Of a stretch of 64,000 bases of DNA, positions 9,864 through 34,140 are shown in pieces. This stretch comes from Candidatus Omnitrophota bacterium (GTDB taxonomy: Bacteria > Omnitrophota > Gorgyraeia > Zapsychrales > Fredricksoniimonadaceae), in NCBI GenBank assembly GCA_903901225.1, contig CAIUQE010000006.1, positions 15,369-79,368 on the forward strand, read 5' to 3'. The position numbers and the translations under genes are program-made. Every line of letters begins with the position of its first letter. The first letter of the stretch is position 1. The notes under the pieces are model-generated. The model saw only the letters and a list, made by a program, of their open reading frames with translations. It ran no database searches and had not been told where the DNA came from.

Positions 9864-9952
9864 GGTGCCTCCGTAAGGTTATTGGAACGCGCTAAGATCA
9901 ACGAGTTCCATTGTCGTCATAATCCGGGATTTTTCAATAGAAAAATCTGCGG

Positions 9953-12139
9953 ATGTCGATTAGAATGTCACTTCCTATGAATTTCGCGGACACCTTATCC
10001 AAATATAATTTTCCCGAGGAATACAAACAAGCCCTTCTCGCCACGGGGATCGTGACGCTCCATCCCCCGCAGGCCGCCGCCATTGACGCTGGCGTCCTGG
10101 AAGGGAAGAACGTCGTCCTGGCCGTACCCACGGCTTCGGGAAAAACCCTGATCGCGGAACTGGCCATGCTCAAGGCCATCTTTGAAAAGAACGGCCGCTG
10201 CCTCTACATCGCGCCGCTGAAAGCTTTGGCCAGCGAAAAATACCGGGAGTTCCAGAAAAAATACGCGCCCCTGGGCATCAAGGTCGGGATCGCCATCGGC
10301 GACCTTGACTCGCCCAGCGCCTATCTGAAGAATTACCAGATCGTGATCGCGACCGCCGAAAAAGTGGACTCGCTCCTGCGCGCGCGCTCCGACTGGTTCA
10401 TCAATGACCTGGCGGTCACGGTGTTCGACGAGATCCATGTCATCAACGACCCCTCCCGCGGCCCGACGCTCGAGATCCTCGCCACCCGCATCCGCCTGCT
10501 GAACCCGGCGATGCAGGTGCTGGCTTTGTCGGCAACGGTGGCCAACGCCAAAGACATGGCGGACTGGCTCGGAGCCGGAGCTGTCGTCAGCTCATGGCGG
10601 CCCATTCCCCTGCACGAAGGCGTTTACTACAACGGCCGGCTGACCTATGAGAACGGCAACATCCGCGTGATCAAGGAAGATGCCCCGGAAGAGGTCCAGC
10701 AGCTGGTGATGGACACCCTGCGCGGCAAAGGGCAGGCGCTGGTCTTCGTCAATTCACGGCGCTCAACGCAGGCGGTGGCCCGCGAACTTTGCCGCTGGGT
10801 GGGGACACTTCTGACACCGGAAGAGCGGGAGACGCTCAAAGATGTCGCCGCGCGCGTCGCACCACCGCTGGAAAGCACCAAGGTCTGTCAAAAACTCGCG
10901 GAGGTCGTGATCCATGGCGTCGCCTTCCACCACGCGGGCCTGCGTCCCGACCAGCGGGAAGCGGTCGAGGAGAATTTCAAAAAGAATATCATCAAGGTGA
11001 TCTGCTGCACACCCACGCTGGCCGCCGGGGTCAACCTGCCGGCCCGGCGCGCGATCATCCGCGACGCCAAACGCTACGCCTCGGGCGTGGGGTCTGTTTT
11101 CATCCCGGCTTCCGAATACAAGCAATGTGCCGGCCGCGCGGGGCGTCCCCAGTACGATGACTACGGCGAAGCCGTACTGCTCGCGAAATCCCTTTCCGAC
11201 CAGGACGCTTTGTTCGAGCGCTTTATCCTCGCGCCCCCCGAGCCCGTGATGTCCCAGCTGGCCAATGAGCACCAGCTGCGCAAACACGTCCTTGCCTCGA
11301 TCGCGGGAGGCTATGTCAATGATGTCAACGGGATGTTCGAATTCCTCAGCCACACCTTCCTTGCGCATCAGCACAAGGGCGCGAATCTGGTCGAACTTGT
11401 GGGCAACATCTTTGACTTCCTGCACAAAGAACAGTTCATCGACAAGAGCGGCTTCCGTTTTTTTGCCACGCCTTTCGGCGCGCGGGTCAGCCGCCTTTAC
11501 ATCGACCCTCTCTCGGCGCTGGTCATCCGCAAAGGCCTGGCGCGGATCGCCTCAGGCGCGAATTTTTCGTCGATCGGGATATTGCACCTGATCTGCTCCT
11601 GCCCCGACAGTGAAAAACTTTCCGTGGGCAAGACCGACCTGGAAGACCTCGAGGATTTCGGCAACAAGGTCGTTGACGAACTGGCGCTGTCGCCAGAGGA
11701 TATTGAAGCCACGCAGGACCACTACACCGCGCTGGGCGTCCTCAAGACCGTCTGGCTTTTATTGCGCTGGATGGATGAAGAAAAAGAGGAAGATATCTGC
11801 GAACGCTTCAATGTGGGCCCCGGTGATGTTTTCCGCCACACGGAATCGGCCCAGTGGCTGCTCTACGCCGCCCAGTCCATTGCCGAGGTCTACCAGTTCA
11901 AGCAACTGACCCATTTTCTCAACGGGCTCCAGAGCCGCGTGCGTTACGGGATCAAGGAAGAGCTCCTGGAACTGGCGAACCTGCGGGGCATCGGCCGCAT
12001 CCGCAGCCGCATCCTTTTCAACAAGGGCTACAAAACCATCGCCGCGCTCGGGAAACTCTCCGCCGAAGACCTGGGCCACATCAAAGGCATCGGGCTGGCT
12101 TTGGCCAAAGACATCCTGAAACAAACCGCCTCACGATGA
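9953..12139 (+). CDS. Hel308/Ski2-like superfamily-2 DNA helicase with C-terminal helix-hairpin-helix domain
   Basis: 728 aa. Q-motif and Walker A (AVPTASGKT), DEIH box, SAT motif ([10 protein letters not shown]), and C-terminal HhH ([46 protein letters not shown]). The size and domain order match archaeal Hel308/Hjm. Confidence 0.8.
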
Positions 12140-15100
12140 CGTTCCCGTCCCCGCGCCAAAGCCCATAAAATTCCGAACATCACTCACCGGCTGAACATTG
12201 ATGATCAGCGGCAGGATACCCTGGACGTCCTGGTCCAGCGCCTTGACCTGCGCCGGAGAAAGGTCGAACCTGAATGCCCCCGCGTCACCCTGGACATCCA
12301 TCCCCGCGGCCTGGTCCGTGAGGTCGATACCGCCGTCGATCTCGGCTTTAGTGGACTGACTGCGGTCCTTGCCATTCCGATGCGACACCGGTTTGTTCTT
12401 AGGACGACTCTTATAATTATTCCCCTTAGCCACCCCATTACGGCCATCTGGTTTCATTACAAGAAGGGGTTTACTTAAAGCAACCGTTGTTTTCATGTTG
12501 TTTATTTTTTGATCCTCTTGTTTACCTGCAAAGCTGGCCTCGTAGAATCTGCGAGCTGTACGCCCATTTTTCTCCATGAACTTCTCAGCCTCCTGTCCCG
12601 ATAAAGGCATCAAATACACCACATCGCCATATCGCGCACCGGACACAGCGCTCGCCTCTTGCTGGGCAAGGAACAACGCATAACGTGCCTCGCCATAACG
12701 GGAAAAAAGTACCATAAAATGCCTGAATCGCGGGTCTGACTTTTCACGCATATCTTTGACCCACTTTCGCGTAGCAACCTTCGCCTGAGAGTTGCCATTT
12801 AAAAATTCTTCAAAGGGGATTTTATTTACCTTACAAAAAGACGCCATGGCATCCCTGGCACTATCCCTTTTGCCAACAGCCTTTTGAACATTTATTACAG
12901 TTATCTTTTTGACCGAAATGCGTTCTTCCGCAGAAAGCAAAGACAATTCGATTATTCTTTTATAAGTTTCATACGTTCTTGGCCCTCCCACATTCCATGA
13001 AGCTCCCCACGTGATAATTAAGATCCGTTCTGGTGACAATTGAGGATATTCTTTACATAACTGCACAAATGATGCCACCATTGATCTGCGTGACGCAAGC
13101 CGGGTCTTTATCTTGGCTGGCATGGTCACCTGTCCTCGCAACATATCAAACGAACGGGAGTAATAATCATCGGCGGGAACATAGGGCTCCCTGGCAAAGA
13201 TATCATCCATGAACGTTAGTTGAAAGATCAACTGCAACTTGGTATCATTCATCCCCATTTTAAACGCTTTCGGAACAAGCCAATGATCCTTATCTGCCAT
13301 ATATCCCATGGCTTTCGACAGGGCAACAACATGTTTATATTCACGCTCATAACCCGCCCCTCTTAAACGCTCCAGCACTGGTATCGCGATCTTGAACATC
13401 TGTTGGGCTGTTGTGGGTTGGATCTGCAAATATCCGATGGTCGACGAGCGCTCCTTGGCATCCCGAAGGGACTGATTATTCCCGAAACCACTTTCAATGC
13501 CCGACTCCCCGATCCATATCTGGAACAAAACCCTGGAGGATATGCCCGCGGCCTTGAAATTCGGCGCCAGATCATCGTAATACCGCTGGAACATTTTTGC
13601 CATGTCATCGTACGTCGCATTTGGTTTTCCCATCATTTTGATCAGGATTTCCTGGGCGGTGTATTTCTTCGTGGGACGGCCACTCCTGCCATCTTCCAAT
13701 ATCTTGAAATTCTTTGCCACATTCTGAAGCATTTCCTTAACATCCTGCCCGGTCAACTTTTTTTCCTTCTGTTCCACAACGGCAATATGTTTCGGGATCG
13801 CCAGCTTCTCAATCACAAATTTACCGCCGACCGCCATCGCCACGGCCAACGACAACCCCAACAATATCTTTCCACCTGAAGAAGATTTATTCTCAATCCC
13901 GGATTTTATGGCCCTGGCCAATGTCGTGACAAGTTTAACAGCCACCTCCTTAAAACTCCCCTGGGCATTGTCGGGTGAACCATCCTTGACATCCATCGAA
14001 GCATCCATATCTTCCGCCACAAACCCGCCGGAGAAATATTTGCGCGGGATAAGTTCCTGGGAATAAGTATCGAGCTCTTCCTTGATCAGGCTGTAAGCGC
14101 CTTTCCGGAACGCCTCAACGTACCTGTCATAGATCTGCCGGTTCTCTTCCCGCGGATGCGCGATCTCATTGCCCTGCGTCTTGTGCCGGTCGATGAACAC
14201 CTGCGCGAACACATTGGCGTCCGTCCCTTGTATTCCCGTCACAAGCCCGGCACTGGCCATCAATTTCCTCTTGAGCCAGGCCGAAAGGACGAGCGCGTGA
14301 ACGATCTGGCGAAGCATGGCAAAATTCGCGCCTTCATTGACCTCTTTCTCCAGCACCGGTAACACAATCTCGCGCAGGACCCCTTTGGCCAGGAGGACGG
14401 CACTATTGTCAGGTACACCAGCTGCGGGCACAAGCGCATTGGCCTGCGCCGCTGTAACATCCCCGGCAGGAGCCGGGGATTCCGCCATGCCCCTCTGATG
14501 GGACATGGCTACATAGTCAGATTCCAGCATGACCTTGAGCTCAACCTTATCCACGAACGCGGATATCTGCTTGCCATCGGGGCCCAGCATCTCGTGGACC
14601 AGCGAACGGCCGGGCATGATCCAGACCTTGTTGAACGTATCGACCGGGATATCGGTGGTGCCATAAGCCTCGTAGGCGCGGCGGTACACTTCCTTCCAGA
14701 ACACCTTGCCCGTCTCACCGTCAGGATGAAGGAGCGATGCGGTCAACTGCTTGAGGATATAATCCTGGGCCAGCAGGTCGCGCCCCATGGCCGTGCGCCC
14801 GAGGTCCTCCTGGACAATCCGCTGGCTTTCATACGGTGACAGGTTGACCCACAGGTCCTTGTTCGGGATCGTCAGCGACACCAGAAAATATTTGATGAGC
14901 CGCATCGAGACATCATTGAATTCCTGTTGTGCCAGCGCCGCGCGGCCTTCATCGAACAGGAAATCCATGCGCAAAGGGTCACTCGCGTCCACGCGCATCC
15001 CCCGCAGGAGGCACGGCGCGCTCGCGGGGCTGAGCGCCACCATCTGCCCCGCGGGCGGAAGGACAAGCCCCTGGGCCATGGCCGCGGGCACGACCCCGGT

Positions 15101-15148
15101 CACGATGAACGCCAGACAGACAATGGACGCAACCATACGCCTTATCAT
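12131..15148 (-). CDS. Modular envelope protein: signal-peptide-like N-terminus, conserved ~350-aa N-module, hydrophobic segment, SLT lytic-transglycosylase-like domain, conserved C-terminal GGIDL module (paralog A)
   Basis: 1005 aa. N-terminal [25 protein letters not shown]. The N-module ([30 protein letters not shown]..., [19 protein letters not shown]) is shared with the ORFs at 22371-25583 and 25764-28748. The SLT signature is [15 protein letters not shown]...[11 protein letters not shown]. The C-terminus GGIDLTDQ...[21 protein letters not shown] is shared with the two paralogs. Confidence 0.8.
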
Positions 15149-22370: not shown

Positions 22371-25300
22371 TTACTTAACCATCAGAAATCCTTGCAAATC
22401 AACCAAAGGAACACTCGAAACAAGGACCGGCTCAAGTCCAAAAAGCCTTTCCTGAAAAACCGTGACTACGGCATCATTGACCTCAAACGACACCGCGCCG
22501 CTCGCGGCATCAACATGCAGATCGATCTTTTGAAGGTCAATACCGCCATAACTCTCCGCATTATCCTGACCCTGCTCAACTTTCGTGAATGTGACCGTCG
22601 AAGATTGACTGCCAAGACTCTGTCCCCATGCTTCATCGCCATGAGCTACAAAAATCTGTTTGAGACGACTTACCCCTTGAGGAATAACCAACGCCACTTC
22701 GACCTTATTATTCACAACATTCACTGTTTTCTTGATCCTGGGATTATCGTCTGGATTTTCATCGTCCACCAGCAAACCTACCAACACTTTTTGGGCACCA
22801 TATACCGTTAATGATACCCTGATCTTTTGACCAGCTACAACAGGAATGCCCTTGTTCATATCCAGATCAAGATAGGAAGATTTCCAATTACTCCCCGAGG
22901 CTAACCCAGGATCCCTCCCACTCAACAGATCCTGATCGCTCACATTGCCGCCCTTTGTTGGCACGGCCAACAACCGATCACTCGCAGGTGTTTCTTGCAC
23001 TGTTCCTATGTCGCCTTGTGTGACAACTTGGGTGACAACAGAATATTCTTTCCCCAGAACCGCATTGTTAATAAAATCAGCTGCCCCCTTCGTATCAATA
23101 CCAATGGCGTCATAAGCAGCTCCGTAATTCTCACCCGTAAACGGATTAACGCGCAGAATAGGATAGAGGACCCAAGAACCAATCGTGCTGCCGCGTACAA
23201 CACCAGAAGGAAACGGTGTCTTCCATCCGTGACCGGTTTGAATGCCGGCTTCAGTGGCATAATAAGCGATCAACCCATCCCCATTCTGAAGTTTTCCAAA
23301 CGCGCTTTTAGCTTGTTTTAAAAGTTCTTCCGCGACGCCCTTATATAATTTAGCCGTTGACTCATCACCTGATGCCGCACAACGAATGGCAGCTTTCTGT
23401 ACTGCCATGATGACACCGCCTGTCCACTCCACGGTTCCCAGCGGATGAACACCTCCCCGTTGGGACGTCGCGAACGAAGAAAGAGGATCCGTAAAATCCA
23501 CCAGGGTTATGGTTTTCACTTCGCCACCCGGGATTGGAGCCGTCACACGCACTAGCGACTTGTTGAGCAACTTGTTGATCTCAGCCTTGAGTTGCGGTAG
23601 CGGCAACTCGTCTCCTACCCGACCCAATAAGGTCCAGGAATATGCATCCGTGGCGAAACTGCCCGGTGAATCATTGGCGCCGCGCAAAATAACGCCGGTT
23701 GAAGGGTTATAAAGATTATTGTAAAAATACGTTTTCCCCTTATCCGCCGCTTGCTTCCATTTTGGATCGCCATACGCTTTGTACAACGCGTAAAATAATG
23801 CCACGGCATCCATGTGCGGTTCCGTAATCACAAGCCCCGGACTCCGATCACCGTCCGTTACACCTCCCTCCGCATTCTGAAGCGACAAAAGAAGATCGCC
23901 CATGGCCAGCGCTAATGGCTGATATTTCTTCGCATCAACGTTCAAGGCCGACAAACCGATCCAGGCGTTGGGTCCCGGTGTCACCTGATACTCAAGCCCC
24001 GCCATACCTGTATTAATATTGACACCATTCATGAATCCCACTAATCCGTTGATGGGCTTGGCAAGGTTAGGATTAGACAAGCCGTTCATAAAGAAATCCA
24101 TAACTGTCCTGGCATAAGCGTCTTCTCCGGCATACTTGAAAGCACCCGCCTCAACGGCCAGATCATACGCATAAGCAATATTCTCCAATTGCGGCATGCC
24201 GACATGGCTCGGAATAAGCCTGGTATTCGGATCTTCCAGTGATTCCATTGCCCGGATAGCTTGCTTATTAAAATCACCCGCATTAACATCCTTCGCTACC
24301 TGCGTACAGCCCGAGGAAGTCAAAAAGACAGAAAGAACAACTAAAAATGAGATTTTCCGTACAAAACCAATACCGGCATCCAGTAACTTCTTCTGAAAAG
24401 CCCGTGTACCCGTTAATGTTGAAATGCCGGGTCCGATGGGAGAAGCATCAATAGTTTCAATGACCAATCCTGTATCAGGTGCCTTGACTGACTGCTTCCC
24501 GTCGATTTCTAGTTTGGGATGGATCGCCATACCGCCGGCAAAATACTTGCGGGGGATCGCCTCGCCAGTATACTGGTCTTTATCTTCCCGGATATAGTTG
24601 TAAACTCCCCGCTTGAAAGCTTCGACATAATTGTTATAAATATTTTCAACAGCCGCCGGATCACCATGCAACACACCTTCGATCTTGTTCTGGTCGGCAT
24701 AAGCACGTGCCAGCAGAGAATCCTTCAACCTTGTTTTGTACCATGTGGCCAGAATAAGCGCCCGATGGATCTGTCGCAGCGGTGCAAACTGGGCGCCTTC
24801 ATTCACTTCTTTCCTGATGACTGGAAGGATCGTCTGGCGCATGGTCTCGCGGGACATTTCCTGCGCTGGAGTACTGCCAGTGGATTGGCCATTCGCCTCC
24901 ATGAGCGCATGGTCACTGTCCAGCATGACATCCAATGAATCTTCCGTAATATAGACAGCACCGCCGTTCTCATAGACCTTGGCTTTCTTTGAAACGATCC
25001 ACACTTTGCTGAAAACATCCGTAGGAATATCAGTTGTACCAAAAAGATCGTACGCCCTTTCATAAACATTTTTCCAGAACACCTTACCCGTTTCGCCTTC
25101 CGGATATATCAAGGAAGATGAAACCTGCTTGAGAATATAGTCCTGCGATAATAACTCGCGGCCCATTTGCGTCCGCCCAAAATCCGGCATAACAATACGA
25201 TCATGCTCCAGAGGAGAAAGATTGACCCACATTTCATTCTCAGGGGTCGTCAGCGCCGCAAAAAAATACCGCACCAGATGATCGACCTCTTCTTGGCCAA

Positions 25301-25535
25301 CCACTTTGGACTCTCCAGGAGACAAAAGAAATTGGAAACGGAAAGGCTCTTTAGGATCGACCTTGAGACCCTGCAAACTTGCCGGGGTCATCGGCTGACT
25401 TAGTCCAACCATATTACCTGGCTCAGGCATCGGCGTCACTTGGGCCGCCCACTGGGCAAAGCCGGCCCCGGCAGTATTCAAAAGGAACGCGCACGCCACC
25501 AGCATGCTCACAATTTTCTTAAACAACTTGCCCAT
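22371..25535 (-). CDS. Modular envelope protein: signal peptide, conserved N-module, hydrophobic segment, (alpha/alpha)6 glycoside-hydrolase-like domain, beta-sandwich region, conserved C-terminal GGIDL module (paralog B)
   Basis: About 1054 aa from MGKLFKKIVSMLVACAFLLNTAGAGFA; the track ORF extends to 25583. N-module WVNLSPLEHDRIV...MGRELLSQDYILKQ...NEGAQFAPLRQ...PRKYFAGG. Central GH-like region with ITEPHMD and SFATDAYSW, reminiscent of GH8-like toroid folds (low certainty). C-terminus GGIDLQKIDL...GLEPVLVSSVPLVDLQGFLM. GC content is lower than the flanking genes. Confidence 0.78.
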   Translation of the reverse strand: MGKLFKKIVSMLVACAFLLNTAGAGFAQWAAQVTPMPEPGNMVGLSQPMTPASLQGLKVDPKEPFRFQFLLSPGESKVVGQEEVDHLVRYFFAALTTPENEMWVNLSPLEHDRIVMPDFGRTQMGRELLSQDYILKQVSSSLIYPEGETGKVFWKNVYERAYDLFGTTDIPTDVFSKVWIVSKKAKVYENGGAVYITEDSLDVMLDSDHALMEANGQSTGSTPAQEMSRETMRQTILPVIRKEVNEGAQFAPLRQIHRALILATWYKTRLKDSLLARAYADQNKIEGVLHGDPAAVENIYNNYVEAFKRGVYNYIREDKDQYTGEAIPRKYFAGGMAIHPKLEIDGKQSVKAPDTGLVIETIDASPIGPGISTLTGTRAFQKKLLDAGIGFVRKISFLVVLSVFLTSSGCTQVAKDVNAGDFNKQAIRAMESLEDPNTRLIPSHVGMPQLENIAYAYDLAVEAGAFKYAGEDAYARTVMDFFMNGLSNPNLAKPINGLVGFMNGVNINTGMAGLEYQVTPGPNAWIGLSALNVDAKKYQPLALAMGDLLLSLQNAEGGVTDGDRSPGLVITEPHMDAVALFYALYKAYGDPKWKQAADKGKTYFYNNLYNPSTGVILRGANDSPGSFATDAYSWTLLGRVGDELPLPQLKAEINKLLNKSLVRVTAPIPGGEVKTITLVDFTDPLSSFATSQRGGVHPLGTVEWTGGVIMAVQKAAIRCAASGDESTAKLYKGVAEELLKQAKSAFGKLQNGDGLIAYYATEAGIQTGHGWKTPFPSGVVRGSTIGSWVLYPILRVNPFTGENYGAAYDAIGIDTKGAADFINNAVLGKEYSVVTQVVTQGDIGTVQETPASDRLLAVPTKGGNVSDQDLLSGRDPGLASGSNWKSSYLDLDMNKGIPVVAGQKIRVSLTVYGAQKVLVGLLVDDENPDDNPRIKKTVNVVNNKVEVALVIPQGVSRLKQIFVAHGDEAWGQSLGSQSSTVTFTKVEQGQDNAESYGGIDLQKIDLHVDAASGAVSFEVNDAVVTVFQERLFGLEPVLVSSVPLVDLQGFLMVK

Positions 25536-25763
25536 AGGAACCTCTCTTTGATAGCTTGACGTCACCAGTGCAAAGTATGCCACATATACCTTACTGCACG
25601 CAACTTTTTCAAAAAAGCTGAATGAAAGCTGAATTGACTCAAAAAAATAATTCCCATGGAAAATGGCCTCGTGAACTTTTTATACCCGCCTTATAAATCT
25701 ATTGCCGCAATGATCACATCCCGTTTTTTATGAAAAATCAAATTAAGTTCTCAGCTAGCATCT

Positions 25764-28748
25764 TTATTGATTAAACCCTAATAAAACAGGATCTGCCGAC
25801 TTGATCGCCAATATCACCGGAACAAGGCCGCTGATATGAATACGATCAAAATTTTGTTGGTTTACCGGCAACGGCACCCCATCCCCATCGCGCTTAATTT
25901 GCAAATCGAGATTGGCCTGAGACATATCAATACCACCGGGAGTAAGCTTTGCCCCATCACGAACAACCGGCATCATGTTCTGCGCAAAGTCAGCCAATGT
26001 TTCTTTAGCCAGCCTTGAAATCACTTGATCCGGCTCGCGGTCTGACTTTTTCAATGACTTTACAATATAAAATTTCATTGCATCATAAACTCCGGCGAAT
26101 CTCGCTGGCATAACAACACCTGTATAAACCAACCCCTGTAAGAATAACCATTTTGTCACTTTAAAAGCCTCGCGTTCCTCCCGCACACTCTTAACTGACA
26201 AACTCATTCCCACATTAACCGCTAGCCATAAGAAATAATTAGTGACCATAGCATTAAATGAAAACGCTTCAGAAGGCTTAATTGGCAGGCTTAATGTGAG
26301 GAAGACATATGCCATGAAATTAATTGCTGTCTGTAATGCCAAGATGTTGGGTGAATGAAACTGCTTCATATAAAATCCAAACTTGTCCACAAACACTTTT
26401 AACGTCCCCCGTTCCCATCTACGGCGCTGTTTAAACAATTCTTTAACAGTATTTGGAACCGTTGTTTGAACTTTTAACCCTGTGTAATATCCAACACGAT
26501 AGTTCTCTTCCATCAACTTGACAGTGATCAACAGATCACCCGTCTCAAAATCCGGCACCATATTCCGCAATGCATGAAGCAACACATCAGCGCGAAACAT
26601 CCCTGCAGGGCCATTGATAACCCACAATTTCCCCTGCTTAGCGGAAACACGATTCCAAAATCTCGTCCCAATATATTCAGCATACTGAGCTTTTTGTAAA
26701 ATAGATGGCTTCTCAGGTAGCAATGGTTCCATCCTAAACGTCATCCCCGCAATACCCTTGTCCTGCATATACGCCGAAGCCTGAGATATCATTTCCTGCA
26801 AAGACAATCCCGGCTTAACTAGGTTAAGATATGAATCAGAGTCAAGCAAGATGACCTTTTCTGGTAAACGCCCCTCCCGACTTAACATTTCTAGCACTTC
26901 ACGAATCGCACCTTCTTTCTTCTTATTCTCTCGCAAATGCATGACCTCGATTCCATCAGAGGCAACCCATCTATCTAATATCTCTTTTGAATTATCTGTG
27001 GAGGCATCATTTACAAAGGTAATTTTATGCAAATACCCTAATGATTTTATCCTAGTTAAAATTTCATCCAGCTTATTACCTTCATTGAACACCGGCACCA
27101 CGATATGGTAATTAGCTGGTAATGCATTCGGATAATAGGGAACATCTAAATTGACTGAATCCATGCCTTCAATATATTTAGAATCTCTTTCCAACTGCTG
27201 TGCAAGGTCAACGTTTAATGACTCACCAATTTCATGAAAAAGTAATAACTTCAGCATCTCATCCTGAAAAGACCTTGCTAACTCAGAAGCATCCTTATCC
27301 TGACCAATATCTTCTGACAACGGAACCAATAATTGCGCAGGAATTTCTATTACTTGTGGCTTCTTAACAATGGCCCCCTGCAAAGGGTTCACAACTTCGA
27401 TACCAGTAACTTTCTCCAAATCAATACCAGGCTGTTCTTTAAGCAACTCACCAAACGCTGCAGCAATAGACGGTCTAATGCCTTCAGATGACAATCGATG
27501 AACCTCTCCATTATACTGAAAGGATTCCGGATATTTAACTTCCAGTGCTTTCTCAACACCATTCTTTGTTGGTAGATTTATCATCAATCGATCTGGAGTC
27601 CTTCCGTACCCAGCGTCAACCATTACAACGGAAACATTATCCGCCTTCGCCATATCATTCTTTCCATCTACCGGAATACGATCAATTACACTCAATATCG
27701 ATGCATCACTTCCTAAAGCCTTGCCAACCCCAATCATACCGCCCGCGAAATACTTGCGTGGAATAGTCTCTTGCGTGTATCGGTCAACATCATCTTTAAT
27801 CATGTTGAAAACACCCATTTTAAATGCCTTAACATATTCCTCATATATGCGCTGATTATTTTTTGGATCCTGATCCACTCCCTTGACCTTACTCTTATCT
27901 GCATACAATTTACCCAGGATCGATTCTTTAAGAGCACGTTTATACCATGTTGCCAGAAGCATGCCACTGTAGACCTGACGCAATGGGGCAAAGTTACGGC
28001 CAGTATTCACTTCCTTTTCAATCTCTGGAATAATCACCCCGCGCATAACATCGTTAAAAATCTTTGCTGTCTCATTATCAGCCTGCGGGCTATCGTGCGT
28101 CTCATTGGCCTTCATTGCCTTATAATCACTTTCAAGCATAACCTTTAGATGATTCTCAATCACAAAAGCCTTGTTCCCTTTTTCATAGATCACAGCTCTA
28201 TCTGGCGTGATCCATACTTTATTGAACGTATCAGTCGGAATATCGGTTGTGCCAAATTTCTCATACGCTTTTGCATATACATCATCCCAAAACTTCCTGC
28301 CTAGATCCGTATCAGGATTACTTAGCGAAGCCGAAATCTGTTTAAGTAAATAATCCTGCGCCAAAAGATCGCGACCCATTTCAGTAAGGCCAAAGTTATC
28401 CGGCAATATACGATCATGTTCATACGGCGAAAGGTTCACCCACTGATCAGTGTCCGGCACCGCTAGTGCGGCCAGAAAATATTTGATAAGTTTTGAATAT
28501 TCTTCCTGTTTTTTATTCTCAGATAACAGATCATCACCACGATAAATAATAAAATCGAACTTGAAAGGATCCCCTGGATTAATAACCATGCCCTTCAAAT
28601 AGGCAGGAGTGAATAAAGAAGTCAACCCTACTGCAACCCCTGGCTGTGGCATCCACGGCATCTCAGAAGCCAGAGCTACAGGAACTCCTGGAAATAGTAA
28701 GGTTGGCAATAAAAGCACACTTGCTATCAATCGTTTTATTGCTTTCAT
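25764..28748 (-). CDS. Modular protein: signal-peptide-like N-terminus, conserved N-module, processive family-2 glycosyltransferase (cellulose-synthase/PgaC-like), C-terminal TM helices, conserved C-terminal GGIDM module (paralog C)
   Basis: 994 aa. N-terminal MKAIKRLIASVLLLPTLLFPGVPVALA, then [13 protein letters not shown]...[14 protein letters not shown]...TGRNFAPLRQ...PRKYFAGG. GT2-A region HIVVPVFNEGNK...FVNDASTDNS...LLDSDSY...NGPAGMFR...KQRRRWERG (the Q(Q/R)xRW motif), followed by three or more transmembrane helices. C-terminus GGIDMSQANL...GLVPVILAIKSADPVLLGF. Lowest GC in the window. Confidence 0.82.
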   Translation of the reverse strand: MKAIKRLIASVLLLPTLLFPGVPVALASEMPWMPQPGVAVGLTSLFTPAYLKGMVINPGDPFKFDFIIYRGDDLLSENKKQEEYSKLIKYFLAALAVPDTDQWVNLSPYEHDRILPDNFGLTEMGRDLLAQDYLLKQISASLSNPDTDLGRKFWDDVYAKAYEKFGTTDIPTDTFNKVWITPDRAVIYEKGNKAFVIENHLKVMLESDYKAMKANETHDSPQADNETAKIFNDVMRGVIIPEIEKEVNTGRNFAPLRQVYSGMLLATWYKRALKESILGKLYADKSKVKGVDQDPKNNQRIYEEYVKAFKMGVFNMIKDDVDRYTQETIPRKYFAGGMIGVGKALGSDASILSVIDRIPVDGKNDMAKADNVSVVMVDAGYGRTPDRLMINLPTKNGVEKALEVKYPESFQYNGEVHRLSSEGIRPSIAAAFGELLKEQPGIDLEKVTGIEVVNPLQGAIVKKPQVIEIPAQLLVPLSEDIGQDKDASELARSFQDEMLKLLLFHEIGESLNVDLAQQLERDSKYIEGMDSVNLDVPYYPNALPANYHIVVPVFNEGNKLDEILTRIKSLGYLHKITFVNDASTDNSKEILDRWVASDGIEVMHLRENKKKEGAIREVLEMLSREGRLPEKVILLDSDSYLNLVKPGLSLQEMISQASAYMQDKGIAGMTFRMEPLLPEKPSILQKAQYAEYIGTRFWNRVSAKQGKLWVINGPAGMFRADVLLHALRNMVPDFETGDLLITVKLMEENYRVGYYTGLKVQTTVPNTVKELFKQRRRWERGTLKVFVDKFGFYMKQFHSPNILALQTAINFMAYVFLTLSLPIKPSEAFSFNAMVTNYFLWLAVNVGMSLSVKSVREEREAFKVTKWLFLQGLVYTGVVMPARFAGVYDAMKFYIVKSLKKSDREPDQVISRLAKETLADFAQNMMPVVRDGAKLTPGGIDMSQANLDLQIKRDGDGVPLPVNQQNFDRIHISGLVPVILAIKSADPVLLGFNQ

Positions 28749-28938
28749 GATTCCTCGTTACTTAATAGTAAGTGCTATTTTCTGCCGTTCAACTGTGAAT
28801 AAAGACCACAACCCACCTTTATAAGTATGTACTCTATATACAAGAAAACAAGATGCCAGCGCCCAAACCGGGAAAACGCTTTCTTGCCTGCAGATTTAAC
28901 GAATATTTGGAGGATGCCCTTGAACCAGGGCGCTTAAA

Positions 28939-29028
28939 CCCGGATTTTTCATTAGAAAAATCCGCCCCGTGAATTCACCTGCTCCAAATCGTTTTGAGAA
29001 GGTGAATTCAGGTCGCGTGGCAAATCCG
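28939..29028. repeat. Left terminal inverted repeat of the cassette
   Basis: Reverse complement matches 30558-30647 with only a few mismatches or indels. Confidence 0.75.
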
Positions 29029-29163
29029 ACGAGGATTTGCCAGCTTTGCGAGGTAATCCTGGACTTTTGCCTGTCCTGGGCTGACGCACCCGACAGGCCA
29101 GGGCACGCACTTTTTAGTGCACAGTATTCTCGACGCTATTTTGAGAAGCGTGCAAAATCCGGG

Positions 29164-30420
29164 TTAAAACAATTTCGGGATCAAATGAGCAAAATAATGC
29201 GGCGCGAACAATACCTTACGGCCATCAAACTGAACCGTTTGAAAAATGTCATTATTCAACACAACAGCCTTGCGAGAATCCGGATACTGCTGCAAGAAAA
29301 CCCGTATGCCTTGTGGAACAACAGCCTCTGTCAATTTCGACTTGACCTCAACGGCTATCGGCGTCCTGTCCTGAACAAGGATAAAATCAACCTCTTCCTT
29401 GCGCCGCGTCCGCCAGTAATAAATATCCTGTCCAACTCCCAAATTCTTCTGCATCTCAGCCAAAACAAACGATTCCCACAACTCTCCCTTGTCACCCCGA
29501 TCCTGCATTGGCCTGAAATCCCTCAAAACGGCGTTGCGAACACCCGTATCGAAATAATACGTCTTGTTCATCTGCTTCAACTCACGCCCGCGATTATTAA
29601 AAAATGGCTTAAGCACACTCAAAAAAAACATTTGCTGAAGGATCGCAAGATCGTTACGGACCTGTCTGAGAGAATAATTTAAATCCTGCGACAACCCGAT
29701 CTCGCTCAATATTCCGCCCTCCTGCGCTGCCAAAAGAGATAACAAACGGTTAAACGACAAAATGTCCTCTTCTCTGAGGAGTGCCTTTATATCTTTCTGA
29801 ATATAAGTTTCAACCAGATCCAGTAAAAGACGCTTCTTGTCGTCTGCCGTCTTCTCATGAACCAGTCCGGGCATGCCGCCAAAGACCACGAACTCGTTCA
29901 AAAGGCCCCGAAGGATCCCATGTGCCCGCCGGGACACAACCGGGCCCCACGCGTCCGGCAGTGCGGCTTTAGACCGGCTTGGCAACCACTCTTTAAAAGA
30001 CAAAGGGAATACCCTGTATAAAAGCCGCCTTCCAGCCATGCTCTCTTTCAGGTGCTTATGCCTCTCGATCGCTGAAGAACCGGATGCGTAAACACGAACC
30101 GCGGGATACTCATCAAAAATGACCTTGAAGAGTTTGGTCGCATTGGGCAGATAATGGAACTCATCGATAAAAACAACCTGTGCTCTGGACGTCAACTCCT
30201 CAAGAACAACCTTCATCGGCCTGGCAAAATATTCCGCGTGCGCCGGGACTTCAAGATTGTAATAAACGTACGGGATATTCCTGTCAACGCAGAGCTTGGC
30301 GATCGTCTTAAGAATGGTGGTCTTGCCGACCTGGCGGGGACCGATAACAACACGCGTCTCGTTACGGTCAAAGTCCTTTGCAAGCCGATCCAGGATATTT
30401 CTTTTAAGTTTCATGCTCAT
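29164..30420 (-). CDS. AAA+ ATPase (AAA_14 + DUF4143-type ATP-binding protein)
   Basis: 418 aa. Walker A GPRQVGKTT, Walker B VVFIDEFHY, and a C-terminal DUF4143-like region. GC is lower than the core genome. This is the sole gene between the TIRs. Confidence 0.8.
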   Translation of the reverse strand: MSMKLKRNILDRLAKDFDRNETRVVIGPRQVGKTTILKTIAKLCVDRNIPYVYYNLEVPAHAEYFARPMKVVLEELTSRAQVVFIDEFHYLPNATKLFKVIFDEYPAVRVYASGSSAIERHKHLKESMAGRRLLYRVFPLSFKEWLPSRSKAALPDAWGPVVSRRAHGILRGLLNEFVVFGGMPGLVHEKTADDKKRLLLDLVETYIQKDIKALLREEDILSFNRLLSLLAAQEGGILSEIGLSQDLNYSLRQVRNDLAILQQMFFLSVLKPFFNNRGRELKQMNKTYYFDTGVRNAVLRDFRPMQDRGDKGELWESFVLAEMQKNLGVGQDIYYWRTRRKEEVDFILVQDRTPIAVEVKSKLTEAVVPQGIRVFLQQYPDSRKAVVLNNDIFQTVQFDGRKVLFAPHYFAHLIPKLF

Positions 30421-30557
30421 ACTTTAGGCTACATCGACGAAGATGTCAATGGAATCATGGACAATCTATACACTACTGAATAGATTGTCCACAACACGCC
30501 TGCCATCCGAACCAGGCATTGCGCTTTCAAATCCGCCAACAACGAAGGCTGTTAATC

Positions 30558-30647
30558 CCGGATTTTTGCCACGCGACCTGAATTCACCTTCTCAAAACGA
30601 TTTAGAGCAGGTGAATTCACGGGGCGGATTTTTCTAATGAAAAATCA
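30558..30647. repeat. Right terminal inverted repeat of the cassette
   Basis: See the left TIR. It ends 17 nt before the dnaE stop codon. Confidence 0.75.
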
Positions 30648-30663
30648 GGGTCAATATCTTTTC

Positions 30664-33600
30664 CTATAAAACCACCCGGAACCCGTTCTCGCCGACCACG
30701 GACTTGATCTCATCCATCAAAACCTCGCTCGGGGTCACGTAAAGCTCACGCCCGACCTTGATCTCGACGCTTTTGTGGTTGCGGGTATCGATCTGCAGGT
30801 GGACCGGGACATTGCCGGGGAACCGTTCGAACTTTTTCTTGATCAGAGGCAGTTTGTCAGGGCCGATCTTGGTCATGTCGACACGGATCAGCTTGACCAG
30901 CTGGTAGATCTCGTTGATGTCCCGCAGTTCATCCACCGCGATATTCCGGGGGCCCGAGGGCTTGCCGTCCTTGCCCTTGCGCGAAAGAACCTTGCCCTTC
31001 ACGACAACGACAGCCCCTTCCTTGATATGGGTGCCGACCACCTTGAAGACCTCGGGGAACGCCACGGCTTCCGTCGTCCCTTCAAGGTCTTCGAGGGTCA
31101 ATATGGCCATGCGCTCCCCGCGGCTCTTGGTGACCGTGTATTTGACCTGGATGATCATCGCAATGAGGCTCACCGACTGGTTTTCCATCACGCCGGGAAT
31201 TTTGGATGTTGTGGCATTGGTGAACGTCTGAATCTCGACCGTATACATGTCCAAAGGATGCCCGCTCAAATAAAAACCGAGAAGTTCCTTCTCGAAGGAC
31301 AAAAGCTGCTGTTGGGGCCATTCTTTCATATCCGGGAATACGTCCGGCTTGGCCACAAATCCTCCTGAATCCTCACCCATCGAGAAGAATGACAACTGCC
31401 CGGCCTGCGCGTCCTTCTGCCGACTGGTCCCGCCATTGAGCGCCTGGTCAAGCACAGCGGCCATTTGAGACCGCTTCGCGCCAAAACTGTCGAACGCGCC
31501 GCACCTGATGAGCGACTCCATCACCTTGCGGTTGCAGGCCCGCAGGTCAACGCGCTGGCACACATCAAAGATAGATTTGAATTTCCCGCCTCTCTCGCGT
31601 TCTTTGACCAAAGACTCGATCGCGCCCGCCCCCACGTTCTTCACGCTCAACAGGCCATAACGGATAGTATCCTTGCTCACAACGGAAAAAACAGCGCGGC
31701 TTTCATTCACATCGGGTGGCAGGACTTTCAGGCACATGGCCTCGGCAGCCTTGACATAATCCACGATTTTGTCGAGGTTGTCTTTTTCATTGGTCAGCAA
31801 AGCGCACATAAACTCCACGGGATAATTCGCCTTCAAATAAGCGGTCCGGTACGTGATAACGGCATATGCCGCGGAATGCGAACGGTTGAACCCGTAACCC
31901 GCGAACTTGTCGATAAGGTCAAAGAGCCGGTTCGCCTCGTCCTCAGGGATAGCGTTCACGCGGGCGCAGCCTGTGACGAAAGACGCGCGCGCCTTGGCCA
32001 TAACATCCGCCTTCTTCTTGGACATCGCGCGCCGCAGATTATCCGCCTCGGCCATCGAGAATCCCGCCAGTTCGCACGCCATCTGCATGACCTGTTCCTG
32101 GTAGATAGCGACGCCATAACTGTTCTTGAGGACCTTTTCCAGCTTGGGATGAAGGTACTGGACCGGCGCCTCACCGCGTTTGCGCTTCACAAAATCGTCG
32201 GCCATGCCGCTGCCCAAAGGGCCCGGCCGGAAAAGCGCGAGCAAGGCAATAATGTCCTCGAATTCCGTCGGCTTGCTCCTGGTAAGGAGGTTCTTCATCC
32301 CGTCGCTTTCCACCTGAAAAACCCCGGCGCTGTCACCCCGGCTCAACAGCTCGTAGGTCTTCGTGTCGTCCAGGGGGATCTTGCGGATATCCAGGTCGAT
32401 CCCGCGGGTCCGTTTGATAATGTGCAAGGCATCCTCAATGAGCGTGAGCGTCTTAAGTCCCAAGAAATCCATTTTCAAAAGGCCGATCTTCTCGACACCC
32501 TTCATGGTATAGGCGGTCGTGATCTGCTCCTCGACCTTGTACAGCGGCACATATTCCTGCAGGGGCTTGTCGGAAATGACAACCCCCGCGGCGTGAACGG
32601 AGGCGTGGCGCGTGAGGCCTTCAAGGACTTTGGCGATATCCATCAGCCGCCGCGCGGTATCATCCATCGCGATGATCTCTTTGAGCTGCGGCTCCGCGTC
32701 AATGGCCAGGTCAATGGCCACATGCATCGCCTCACCGTTATCGTCAAGGATACGGTCGGGGATAAGCTTCGCGATACGGTCAACATCCGGGTATGGAAGG
32801 CCAAGCGCCCGGCCGACATCGCGCACAACGGCCTTGGCCTGCAATGTTCCGAAGGTGATGATCTGGGCCACATTCGCGCGGCCGTATTTCTTGGTCACAT
32901 AATCAACGACTTCTCCCCGGCGTTCGAAACAAAAATCAATATCGATATCCGGCATGCTCACACGCTCGGGATTGAGGAAACGTTCGAAAAAGAGGGAGTA
33001 CTTGATCGGATCAAGGTCCGTGATCCCCAGAAGATAGCTCACCAGGCTCCCGGCGGCCGACCCGCGGCCCGGCCCGACGGGAATATTGCAGCTCTGGGCA
33101 TAATGCACAAAATCCCAGACGATCAGGAAATAGCCCAGGAACCCCATTTTCGCGATCTCCTGGAGCTCGAACTCCAGCTGTTTAAGGACATTCTCGGGTA
33201 TATCTTTGCCATAACGCTCAACGGCACCCTCGAGGCACAGGCGCTTCAAATACCCTTCTTTTGTGTCTCCCGACGGGACGGCGTATTCGGGGACATGATA
33301 CGCCCCGAATTGAAGTTTCACGTTACACTTTTCAGCGATCTCGAGCGTATTGGCCACGGCCTGGGGCGCCCAGCTGAACAAGGACGCCATTTCCTCCCCG
33401 CTCTTGAAATAGAACTGGTCGGAATTCATCCGCATGCGCTTGGGGTCGGAAAGGGCTGTCTGCGTCTGGATGCACAACAACGCCTCATGCGCCTCATAAT
33501 GGGCGTACTCAAGATAATGGACATCATTGGTGGCAACCAAAGGAATATTCATCTCGCGGGAAAGTTTCAGGAGGCCTTCATTGACCACGCGCTGTTCCGG

Positions 33601-34140
33601 CAGGCCGTGTTCCATGACTTCCAGGTAATAATCGCCGGGCGCGAAGATCTGCCGGTATTCATCGGCGACGCGGCACGCGTCCTCATACTTCCCGGCGGAT
33701 AAACGCGCCGGGACTTCCCCTTTCAGGCAGGCCGAAAGGCCGATGAGACCCCTGGCATGCCGTGCCAGAAGTTCCTTGTCGATGCGCGGCTTGTAATAAA
33801 ACCCCTCAAGATACCCCGCGGAAACAAGTTTCATCAGATTGGCATAGCCATCAAGGTCTTTGGCAAGAAGGATGAGATGCGCTGTACTGCGCTGATCGCC
33901 GGAGCGTCCCTGCCGCGCGCCCGGCGCAACATAAACTTCGCACCCGATGATGGGCTTAACGCCGGCATTATGGGCGTCCTCGTAAAACTCCAGGGCGCCG
34001 AACATGTTGCCATGGTCCGTCATCGCGACCGCGGGCATGCCATAGGCTTTGGCTTTTTTGACAAGTTCCTTGAGGCGGCAAGCGCCGTCAAGAAGGCTGT
34101 ACTGGGTATGGACGTGAAGATGGGCGAAAGGTGTGGACAT
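30664..34140 (-). CDS. dnaE: DNA polymerase III alpha subunit
   Basis: 1158 aa. N-terminal PHP domain (FAHLHVHTQYSLLDGA), polymerase core, and OB-fold C-terminus. Confidence 0.95.
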   Translation of the reverse strand: MSTPFAHLHVHTQYSLLDGACRLKELVKKAKAYGMPAVAMTDHGNMFGALEFYEDAHNAGVKPIIGCEVYVAPGARQGRSGDQRSTAHLILLAKDLDGYANLMKLVSAGYLEGFYYKPRIDKELLARHARGLIGLSACLKGEVPARLSAGKYEDACRVADEYRQIFAPGDYYLEVMEHGLPEQRVVNEGLLKLSREMNIPLVATNDVHYLEYAHYEAHEALLCIQTQTALSDPKRMRMNSDQFYFKSGEEMASLFSWAPQAVANTLEIAEKCNVKLQFGAYHVPEYAVPSGDTKEGYLKRLCLEGAVERYGKDIPENVLKQLEFELQEIAKMGFLGYFLIVWDFVHYAQSCNIPVGPGRGSAAGSLVSYLLGITDLDPIKYSLFFERFLNPERVSMPDIDIDFCFERRGEVVDYVTKKYGRANVAQIITFGTLQAKAVVRDVGRALGLPYPDVDRIAKLIPDRILDDNGEAMHVAIDLAIDAEPQLKEIIAMDDTARRLMDIAKVLEGLTRHASVHAAGVVISDKPLQEYVPLYKVEEQITTAYTMKGVEKIGLLKMDFLGLKTLTLIEDALHIIKRTRGIDLDIRKIPLDDTKTYELLSRGDSAGVFQVESDGMKNLLTRSKPTEFEDIIALLALFRPGPLGSGMADDFVKRKRGEAPVQYLHPKLEKVLKNSYGVAIYQEQVMQMACELAGFSMAEADNLRRAMSKKKADVMAKARASFVTGCARVNAIPEDEANRLFDLIDKFAGYGFNRSHSAAYAVITYRTAYLKANYPVEFMCALLTNEKDNLDKIVDYVKAAEAMCLKVLPPDVNESRAVFSVVSKDTIRYGLLSVKNVGAGAIESLVKERERGGKFKSIFDVCQRVDLRACNRKVMESLIRCGAFDSFGAKRSQMAAVLDQALNGGTSRQKDAQAGQLSFFSMGEDSGGFVAKPDVFPDMKEWPQQQLLSFEKELLGFYLSGHPLDMYTVEIQTFTNATTSKIPGVMENQSVSLIAMIIQVKYTVTKSRGERMAILTLEDLEGTTEAVAFPEVFKVVGTHIKEGAVVVVKGKVLSRKGKDGKPSGPRNIAVDELRDINEIYQLVKLIRVDMTKIGPDKLPLIKKKFERFPGNVPVHLQIDTRNHKSVEIKVGRELYVTPSEVLMDEIKSVVGENGFRVVL

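Follow-up and report, generated by a model that had tools for sequence, protein, structure and literature searches.

In a 64-kb stretch of DNA from an uncultured Candidatus Omnitrophota bacterium (contig CAIUQE010000006.1, positions 15369–79368; hereafter the window), a single ATPase gene lies between two nearly identical inverted sequences, and the initial annotation, made from the sequence alone, took the whole for a 1.7-kb cassette that might be a non-autonomous mobile element. We found that the flanking DNA is indeed mobile but that the units are two copies, of 225 bp and 94 bp, of a MITE (miniature inverted-repeat transposable element) and not the 1.7-kb ATPase cassette. The arrangement very probably reflects two separate MITE insertions that bracket a horizontally acquired ATPase–nuclease gene of the PDC-S01 type. 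This removes a tempting false lead, as a frame of long inverted repeats resembles a new transposon where there is here a gene between two MITEs, and it documents a seemingly new MITE family in an uncultured phylum, one that targets WTHAW, has CCCGGATTTTT ends and modular hairpins that covary, and may possess a 28-nt minimal form. It is also a caution for scans that flag 'TIR cassettes' (TIR, terminal inverted repeat), useful for annotation and not something that would surprise a specialist.

The two MITE copies beside the ATPase gene

The features of the locus are the following (coordinates refer to the window throughout, unless another locus is named).

28939–29163, plus strand: long MITE copy, 225 bp, ends CCCGGATTTTT...GCAAAATCCGGG, non-coding
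28934–28938: outer target-site duplication of the long copy, TTAAA (scored as an exact 5-nt duplication in L075, another contig of this locus, which has the same flank)
29164–29168: inner target-site duplication of the long copy, TTAAA
28941–28964, 28963–29017 and 29018–29042: hairpins 1, 2 (the GAATTC-box hairpin) and 3 of the long copy, which has further stems
28938–29024: left arm of the inverted repeat, the part of the long copy that the short copy also has
30557–30650, minus strand: short MITE copy, 94 bp
30552–30556: inner target-site duplication of the short copy, TTAAT
30651–30655: outer target-site duplication of the short copy, TCAAT, at a distance of 8 nt from the dnaE stop codon
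30565–30651: right arm of the inverted repeat, the bulk of the short copy
29164–30420, minus strand: AAA_14 + DUF4143 ATPase of the PADLOC PDC-S01 type, 418 aa
25764–28748, minus strand: GT2-fusion gene
30664–34140, minus strand: dnaE

The two copies lie in opposite orientation and thus form an inverted repeat, whose arms (87 nt, 98% complementary, spaced by 1540 nt) were recovered by a repeat search of the window. The near-perfect inverted repeat reported initially therefore stands, with the right arm, then placed at 30558–30647, displaced by 4–7 nt. An alignment of the copies showed that the short one equals the long one minus 131 nt between the near-identical microhomologies GCAAATCCG and GCAAAATCCG; it keeps both terminal repeats and carries one mutation (CCCTG) at its outer end, which reads GAAAAATCAGGG. 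In each copy CCCGGATTTT(T) pairs with AAAATCCGGG as the TIRs, the ends of the family as a whole being CCCGGATTTTT and AAAAATCCGGG (11–13 nt). Pairing of the long-copy ends runs from TTAAACCCGGATTTTTCA (28934–28951) to TGCAAAATCCGGGTTAAA (29151–29168) at 89%, and a further 15-nt pair (87%) joins TTAATCCCGGATTTT (30552–30566) to its inverted partner AAAATCCGGGTTAAA (29154–29168).

Each copy has a flanking duplication of its own. The long copy is bordered by TTAAA on both sides, and the flanks of the short copy, TTAAT and TCAAT, agree at four of the five positions, whereas the outer flanks of the 1.7-kb unit, TTAAA (28934–28938) and TCAAT (30651–30655), agree at three. The earlier statement that the element lacks a target-site duplication is accordingly correct for the 1.7-kb unit, but the 5-bp repeat and short TIRs of each individual copy had been missed. 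MITEs are defined as small elements with TIRs and a 2–10-bp duplication that encode no transposase (PMC11602168; PMC10969869), and we applied the term to elements of ~50–800 bp that carry no transposase gene, have TIRs and generate a target-site duplication of fixed length. In size, non-coding nature, TIRs and fixed-length duplication, the 225-bp and 94-bp copies are MITEs.

The 418-aa AAA_14 + DUF4143 protein is, as first noted, the only gene product encoded between the repeats, and no transposase is encoded there; the other open reading frames that overlap the MITE copies (52, 64 and 237 aa, the last antisense to the ATPase gene) are not plausible as genes. The placement of repeats and ATPase gene between dnaE, which ends at 30664, and the GT2-fusion gene, which starts at 28748, was likewise correct. 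The inner TTAAA of the long copy includes the ATPase stop codon TAA (29164–29166, minus strand). The protein ends exactly where its homologue P0016 does, and within 1–7 residues of the ends of other homologues, so that insertion of the long copy left the gene intact.

Both copies are strongly structured. The long copy has a folding energy of −64 kcal/mol (z = −9.9) as single-stranded DNA and of −96 kcal/mol (z = −6.8) as RNA of the transcribed strand; an Rfam scan of 28700–30900 gave no meaningful match. The 10-bp stem-loop CGGATTTTTC-ATTA-GAAAAATCCG assigned to each outer end is perfect at 28941–28964 and has one mismatch at 30625–30648. Two inverted GGTGAATTCA boxes do occur in each arm, at 28970–28979 and 29001–29010 in the left and at 30579–30588 and 30610–30619 in the right, and the pattern has five matches in the window versus 0.14 expected by chance. 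These boxes are the two strands of one hairpin with 26-nt arms, which is confined to a single subfamily; the closely related copy at L040, flanked by TTAAA on both sides, carries a short hairpin, GCCCCGAAGGG, in its place. Their interpretation as protein-binding sites is therefore not upheld.

A dispersed family of hairpin-rich elements

The terminal-hairpin pattern CCSGGATTTTTCAWTAGAAAAATC was found at 55 loci in a metagenome scan, which align as one modular family of non-coding, hairpin-rich elements of 28–324 bp (validated ends). The common layout starts with a WTHAW flank and the terminal hairpin CCCGGATTTTTC-AWTA-GAAAAATCCG; next come a hairpin that varies, one of the GGCCAAATTC-GACGA-GAATTTGGCC type, more stems and the end (G/C)AAAATYYGGG. 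Further copies, which the initial annotation had proposed to look for together with their target-site duplications, were found (at the 55 loci and in two contigs of an Omnitrophica metagenome-assembled genome, MAG), and many of them do show exact 5-bp repeats. Among 30 distinct elements with a recognizable right end, 20 have an exact 5-nt duplication, versus 0 of 180 controls in which the left pentamers were shifted by 5–10 nt. With a looser definition of the right end the count is 23 of 49 distinct elements, compared with 4.6% of cross-pairs, a control that respects the AT-rich target consensus (binomial P ∼ 3e-18). The consensus of the duplications is WTHAW, in which position 2 is invariably T and position 4 invariably A.

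The two MAG contigs, found by a genome scan with the box pattern, belong to 'Candidatus Omnitrophica bacterium Ki2-D4_bin-0675'. Both begin with 141 nt that are 99.3% identical to window positions 29075–28935 and fall wholly inside the long MITE; unrelated flanks follow, after ATAAA in one contig and TTAAA in the other. We interpret the identical starts as the overlap that a de Bruijn graph leaves at a branch point, as a multi-copy element would give. Two copies and one solitary hairpin lie in the 64-kb window, and the MAG, which comes from this lineage or a sister one, has at least two more junctions. The solitary element is a degenerate terminal hairpin, CCGGGATTTTTCAATAGAAAAATCTG, which has no recognizable target-site duplication:

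9921–9949 (stem-loop 9926–9949), plus strand: solitary degenerate terminal hairpin, upstream of a Hel308-like helicase gene (9953–12139)

The third hairpin of the family covaries between subfamilies: nine of its 11 pairs have both sides changed, the paired fraction of cells is 93% and none of 500 shuffles equalled this value, with the caveat that the hairpins were chosen by a best-hairpin search and that template-switch correction within palindromes could give the same pattern. Full elements have the terminal repeat a second time, inverted, within their left end, so that a 28-nt palindrome could act as a minimal element; judging by the sequence of its one example, L042, flanked by TTCAA on both sides, it may do so.

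Many members (L056, L092, L081 and others) have an internal second end, ...GAAAAATCCGGG|ATWAC, at ~138 and ~222–232 nt from the left end, and in many an internal CCCAAATTTTGC pairs with the final GCAAAATTTGGG; these internal ends suggest nested or fused sub-elements. Pairing of the top-strand CCCGG and TTTGG ends would be G-U compatible as RNA. The stop-to-stop open reading frame context of the 55 loci has too much noise to support a firm conclusion on a preference for intergenic sites.

In being small and non-coding, with TIRs of at least 10 nt and a duplication of fixed length, the family resembles the prokaryotic MITEs Correia/NEMIS of Neisseria, ERIC, RUP and MITEAba12. It is also like them in that its copies are many and dispersed, the predicted structure is strong, variants with internal deletions exist and insertion takes place beside gene ends. 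Unlike those, it combines CCCGGATTTTT ends with a 5-bp WTHAW target, which match no family that we found in the literature; its left end has the inverted second terminal repeat, its host is an uncultured Omnitrophota bacterium and no parent insertion sequence was found. A literature search on the terminal sequence, on the WTHAW target and on MITEs in Omnitrophica/Omnitrophota returned nothing relevant, and the family appears to be undescribed, whereas the bracketing of a gene by MITEs belongs to a type of situation already known.

A likeness also exists to REP/BIME sequences with their RAYTs and to IS200/IS605-derived elements, which are extragenic, hairpin-rich repeats with stems that covary between subfamilies. 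Elements of the REP/RAYT or IS200/IS605 type insert with a fixed tetra- or pentanucleotide at just one of their sides, and to our knowledge these palindromic elements have neither TIRs nor target-site duplications. As the present family has TIRs and two-sided 5-bp duplications, it is not classed with them.

Other genome matches to the GAATTC-box pattern (in Saprospiraceae, Gemmatimonadota and others) proved to be unrelated palindromes or chance hits. Those of the Saprospiraceae MAGs form an unrelated family of long palindromes with the core TGAATTCACCSGGTGACT...AGTCACCSGGTGAATTCA, some copies of which are nested in inverted arms GGCTGGAATCAGCT...:

L009, 5975–6013: Saprospiraceae palindrome
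L011, 6864–6902: Saprospiraceae palindrome
L013, 2381–2419: Saprospiraceae palindrome
L016, 7871–7909: Saprospiraceae palindrome
L017, 107–146: Saprospiraceae palindrome
L023, 995–1033: Saprospiraceae palindrome

The ATPase gene and its genomic setting

Pfam assigns the AAA_14 (E = 3e-26) and DUF4143 (E = 1.6e-32) domains to the ATPase, and the PADLOC model PDC-S01 matches it over its full length (E = 6e-84); the two agree with the earlier AAA+ (DUF4143) assignment and refine it to the candidate defence family PDC-S01. The Walker A motif is GPRQVGKT and the C-terminal PD-(D/E)XK motif is EVDFIL...VEVKSK. In an alignment of 52 sequences no variation is seen at G30, K31 and T32 (Walker A), D84 and E85 (Walker B), D343 or K358, and next to none at E356. 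An AlphaFold2 model (predicted local distance difference test score 90.3) places D343 and E356-x-K358 on consecutive beta-strands of a C-terminal segment with the order helix, three strands, helix, strand. Foldseek comparison with the PDB put Orc1/Cdc6, STAND NLRs and RuvB AAA+ proteins at the top, and single-sequence and profile searches of the PDB gave matches at the level of the P-loop only, with no solved structure of the family.

DUF4143/COG1373 has been counted among the PD-(D/E)XK families (PMC3424549). PDC-S01 has been described as a candidate defence system of one gene, whose product joins an ATPase to a PD-(D/E)XK domain, and ranked as the fourth commonest defence candidate in prokaryotes, with validation pending (PMC12988326); one representative was not among four protective candidates in Escherichia coli (bioRxiv 10.1101/2024.09.26.614923). 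The window protein resembles PDC-S01/COG1373 in its full-length hidden Markov model match, Walker A motif, DUF4143 with D...ExK and occurrence as a single-gene unit in islands, and we saw no architectural difference. It is thus a candidate defence gene of the PDC-S01 type.

Homologues at 58–82% identity number in the hundreds and come from MAGs of Omnitrophica, Planctomycetota, Ratteibacteria, Margulisiibacteriota and Elusimicrobia. Among the loci inspected, L097 (82%), L026 (78%) and L028 (61%) have no flanking inverted repeats. The region upstream of the gene is shared with the closest homologues:

30421–30449, minus strand: promoter-like TTGACA-17-TAAAGT, 10 of 12 matches, kept in L024 (80% homologue), L026 and L097
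30458–30491: palindrome TGGACAATCTATWC-N-GWATAGATTGTCCA, kept upstream of the closest homologues
Palindrome and promoter region together: window 30421–30491; L024 3920–4007; L026 3930–4007; L097 1268–1347

The homologue consensus consists of the palindrome GGACAATCTATWC-N5-GTATAGATTGTCC followed by TTGACA-17-TAMAGT up to the ATG, and similarity among these loci ends just upstream of the palindrome, which marks the 5′ limit of the conserved gene unit. The promoter-like −10 box abuts the first ATG, so that the mRNA is probably leaderless and starts at the second; the true start of the protein is probably this second ATG at 30414, which gives 416 aa. The palindrome may be an (auto)regulatory operator or a second promoter.

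The homologue loci have features of their own. L024 is a second case of this type of ATPase gene between repeat copies, as it sits between two direct copies (3640–3860 and 5340–5520) of a different, G-rich hairpin repeat that ends in CCCCCTCCCCTTGTGGGAGGGGG(C/T)AGGGGGAGGG and then a T-run (41 nt, 95% identical). In L097 (765–838) and L026 (2188–2261) a tRNA-Gln(CTG) gene lies upstream of the ATPase homologue, and both loci have downstream a common small open reading frame and an AEP-TOTE primase-like gene. L026 also encodes a second AAA_14/DUF4143 protein, along with the reverse transcriptase of a group II intron. This gene content suggests that the homologues in L097 and L026 are carried on integrative islands.

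The gene order IMPDH–guaA–dnaE–(variable slot)–HU–hisS is conserved among relatives, the named Omnitrophica/Omnitrophota dnaE homologues reaching 80–81% identity. In the window, where dnaE, guaA, the GT2-fusion gene and a gene for a 1070-aa protein without a Pfam domain are the neighbours, the slot is an islet at 22371–30655, from dnaE to HU, that holds the ATPase, the GT2-fusion gene and the gene for the 1070-aa protein. The islet genes have a GC content of 38–52%, versus 53–59% in dnaE and the genes beyond. At the same place, a relative with 95% identity in dnaE (L093) has an insertion sequence with a DUF4372 + DDE_Tnp_1 transposase (5011–6100) directly downstream of dnaE, an 85% relative has a PMT glycosyltransferase gene and an 80% relative has other genes. 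The gene tables of these three relatives (L093, L094, L096) show no ATPase at this position, and no repeat copy was seen in L093, the only one read as DNA. The ATPase gene is a horizontally acquired gene in a variable, low-GC islet between dnaE and the HU gene. The insertion sequence of L093 was considered as a parent of the MITE family and rejected, because its ends, read from the sequence as CACTAGTGTCCCAGC / CACTACTGTCCCAAC, differ.

The exact ATPase and the exact GT2 protein occur only in the dnaE context, in >16 contigs, and the ATPase occurs also in Logan unitigs of ∼1.46–1.51 kb that contain it alone and break off at the repeats. All recorded contigs with the exact dnaE or the exact GT2 protein have identical spacing, and one of them begins inside the long copy. 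The constant spacing indicates that the arrangement is fixed, as it seems, in the sampled populations. Assemblies break at the MITE copies, as multi-copy DNA would lead one to expect, and the family accounts for the assembly breaks at the locus.

Origin of the bracketed arrangement

We infer the following course of events. A transposase encoded in trans, which the TIRs and target-site duplications imply, would recognize CCCGGATTTTT/AAAAATCCGGG ends and cut WTHAW targets with a 5-bp stagger, so that each insertion would leave a 5-bp direct repeat at each side of the copy. One recently active subfamily (copies 98–99% identical) would have entered the AT-rich gene boundaries of the acquired islet twice. 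The 225-bp copy would have gone into the TTAAA that bears the ATPase stop codon and the 94-bp copy, a putative microhomology deletion derivative, into a site 8 nt beyond the stop codon of dnaE. What kind of transposase acted and which one it was, in what order the events took place, and any effect of the copies on transcription of the ATPase and GT2 genes belong equally to what we infer.

Several observations weigh against two separate insertions. The duplication of the short copy is imperfect (4/5), and all four flanks resemble the target consensus, so that values of 5/5 and 4/5 versus 3/5 are only moderate evidence against a composite unit. Two 98%-identical copies of a rare subfamily surround one foreign gene, a coincidence that a composite origin explains more simply. 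No empty-site allele was found for either copy; the interval after dnaE holds unrelated content in the relatives, so that no orthologous empty site exists. An autonomous insertion sequence with matching ends and duplication was not found either: no element exceeds 324 bp within 6 kb in any of the loci, and the terminal hairpin has no match in viral contigs, although these data are limited and no dedicated search of large collections was made. Finally, a taxonomic assignment is available for a minority of the 55 metagenome loci only.

The main rival is a composite, MITE-flanked transposon, in which the ATPase gene and both copies arrived, or move, as a 1.7-kb unit through the outer ends and with a transposase supplied in trans. 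Here 98%-identical copies of the same subfamily point the same type of end outward around a single, foreign gene of lower GC content, pairs of MITEs have been reported to mobilize cargo (PMC10969869; PMC5405625) and the 80% homologue in L024 is likewise bracketed by two copies of a repeat, albeit a different one. There is a resemblance to MITE-flanked class 1 integrons and integron mobilization units, which also have two copies of one MITE around cargo without a transposase of its own. In those systems, movement as a block is supported by several strains in which identical pairs of MITEs enclose different cargo, whereas at the present locus each copy has its own duplication, the unit occupies one site only and the copies are inverted and unequal in length. 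We consider a composite transposon improbable, since its outer flanks match at 3/5 positions whereas the individual copies have duplications of 5/5 or 4/5, and since the exact ATPase and GT2 protein are confined to the dnaE context, with no second location in >16 contigs. Moreover, the closest ATPase homologues lack these MITEs, and no linkage to an ATPase was seen for the other genomic copies of the element end, whose common 141 nt fall entirely within the long MITE. Members of the repeat family lie at dozens of unrelated loci where there is no ATPase gene. The proposal that the cassette is a transposon remnant finds no support.

It is very unlikely that the repeats delimit an invertible segment or act as paired regulatory palindromes that switch or insulate expression of the ATPase or GT2 gene. 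An 87-bp near-perfect inverted repeat with arms 1.5 kb apart could allow homologous recombination, and the strongly structured copies do lie between genes transcribed in the same direction. However, a single orientation is found in the window and in L001, L006 and L075, which are independent assemblies, and the gene tables list no recombinase among the adjacent genes. The paired regulatory palindromes, offered at first as an alternative explanation, are unsupported, because the arms belong to a dispersed transposable family with target-site duplications; for ordinary members of such a family no locus-specific function needs to be invoked.

The remaining idea is an autonomous element of a new kind, in which the AAA+/PD-(D/E)XK protein is itself the mobility enzyme and acts on the hairpin ends. 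The presence of an ATPase and a nuclease motif in one protein, with no other gene between the repeats, could be read in this way. So could the distant DUF4143 homologue (27% identity) of L062, encoded ∼650 nt from a minimal family hairpin. When the 55 loci and both MAG contigs were searched with the ATPase by tblastn, L062 was one of only two loci with a match, the other being L075, a JGI contig that covers the window's own locus. The other 53 of the 55 loci have no DUF4143-type gene nearby, homologues at 61–82% identity lack such ends, and a regular 5-bp duplication implies a staggered-cut transposase, a domain that is absent here; we regard this idea as scarcely credible. PDC-S01 is among the commonest candidate defence genes (PMC12988326), so that chance proximity to MITEs is to be expected. 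A functional tie between a PDC-S01-type protein and the repeat family, whether by mobilization in trans or by use of the copies as recognition sites, is very unlikely; if it were true, the 1.7-kb unit would represent an undescribed kind of element, autonomous or self-targeting, and not a chance sandwich.

With two separate insertions as the preferred reading, the locus is a natural example of a candidate defence gene in a configuration where MITE-mediated mobilization or inversion could occur. Possible consequences are structured 3′ and 5′ untranslated regions of the ATPase transcript and long-range RNA pairing in read-through transcripts; RecA-mediated inversion and mobilization of the intervening gene are also possible.

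Two minor features of the window may be added. A terminator-like hairpin is present at 28871–28856, and the insertion point of the long copy is upstream of it. Two proteins of ∼1000–1070 aa without a Pfam domain are encoded at 12131–15148 and 22371–25583.

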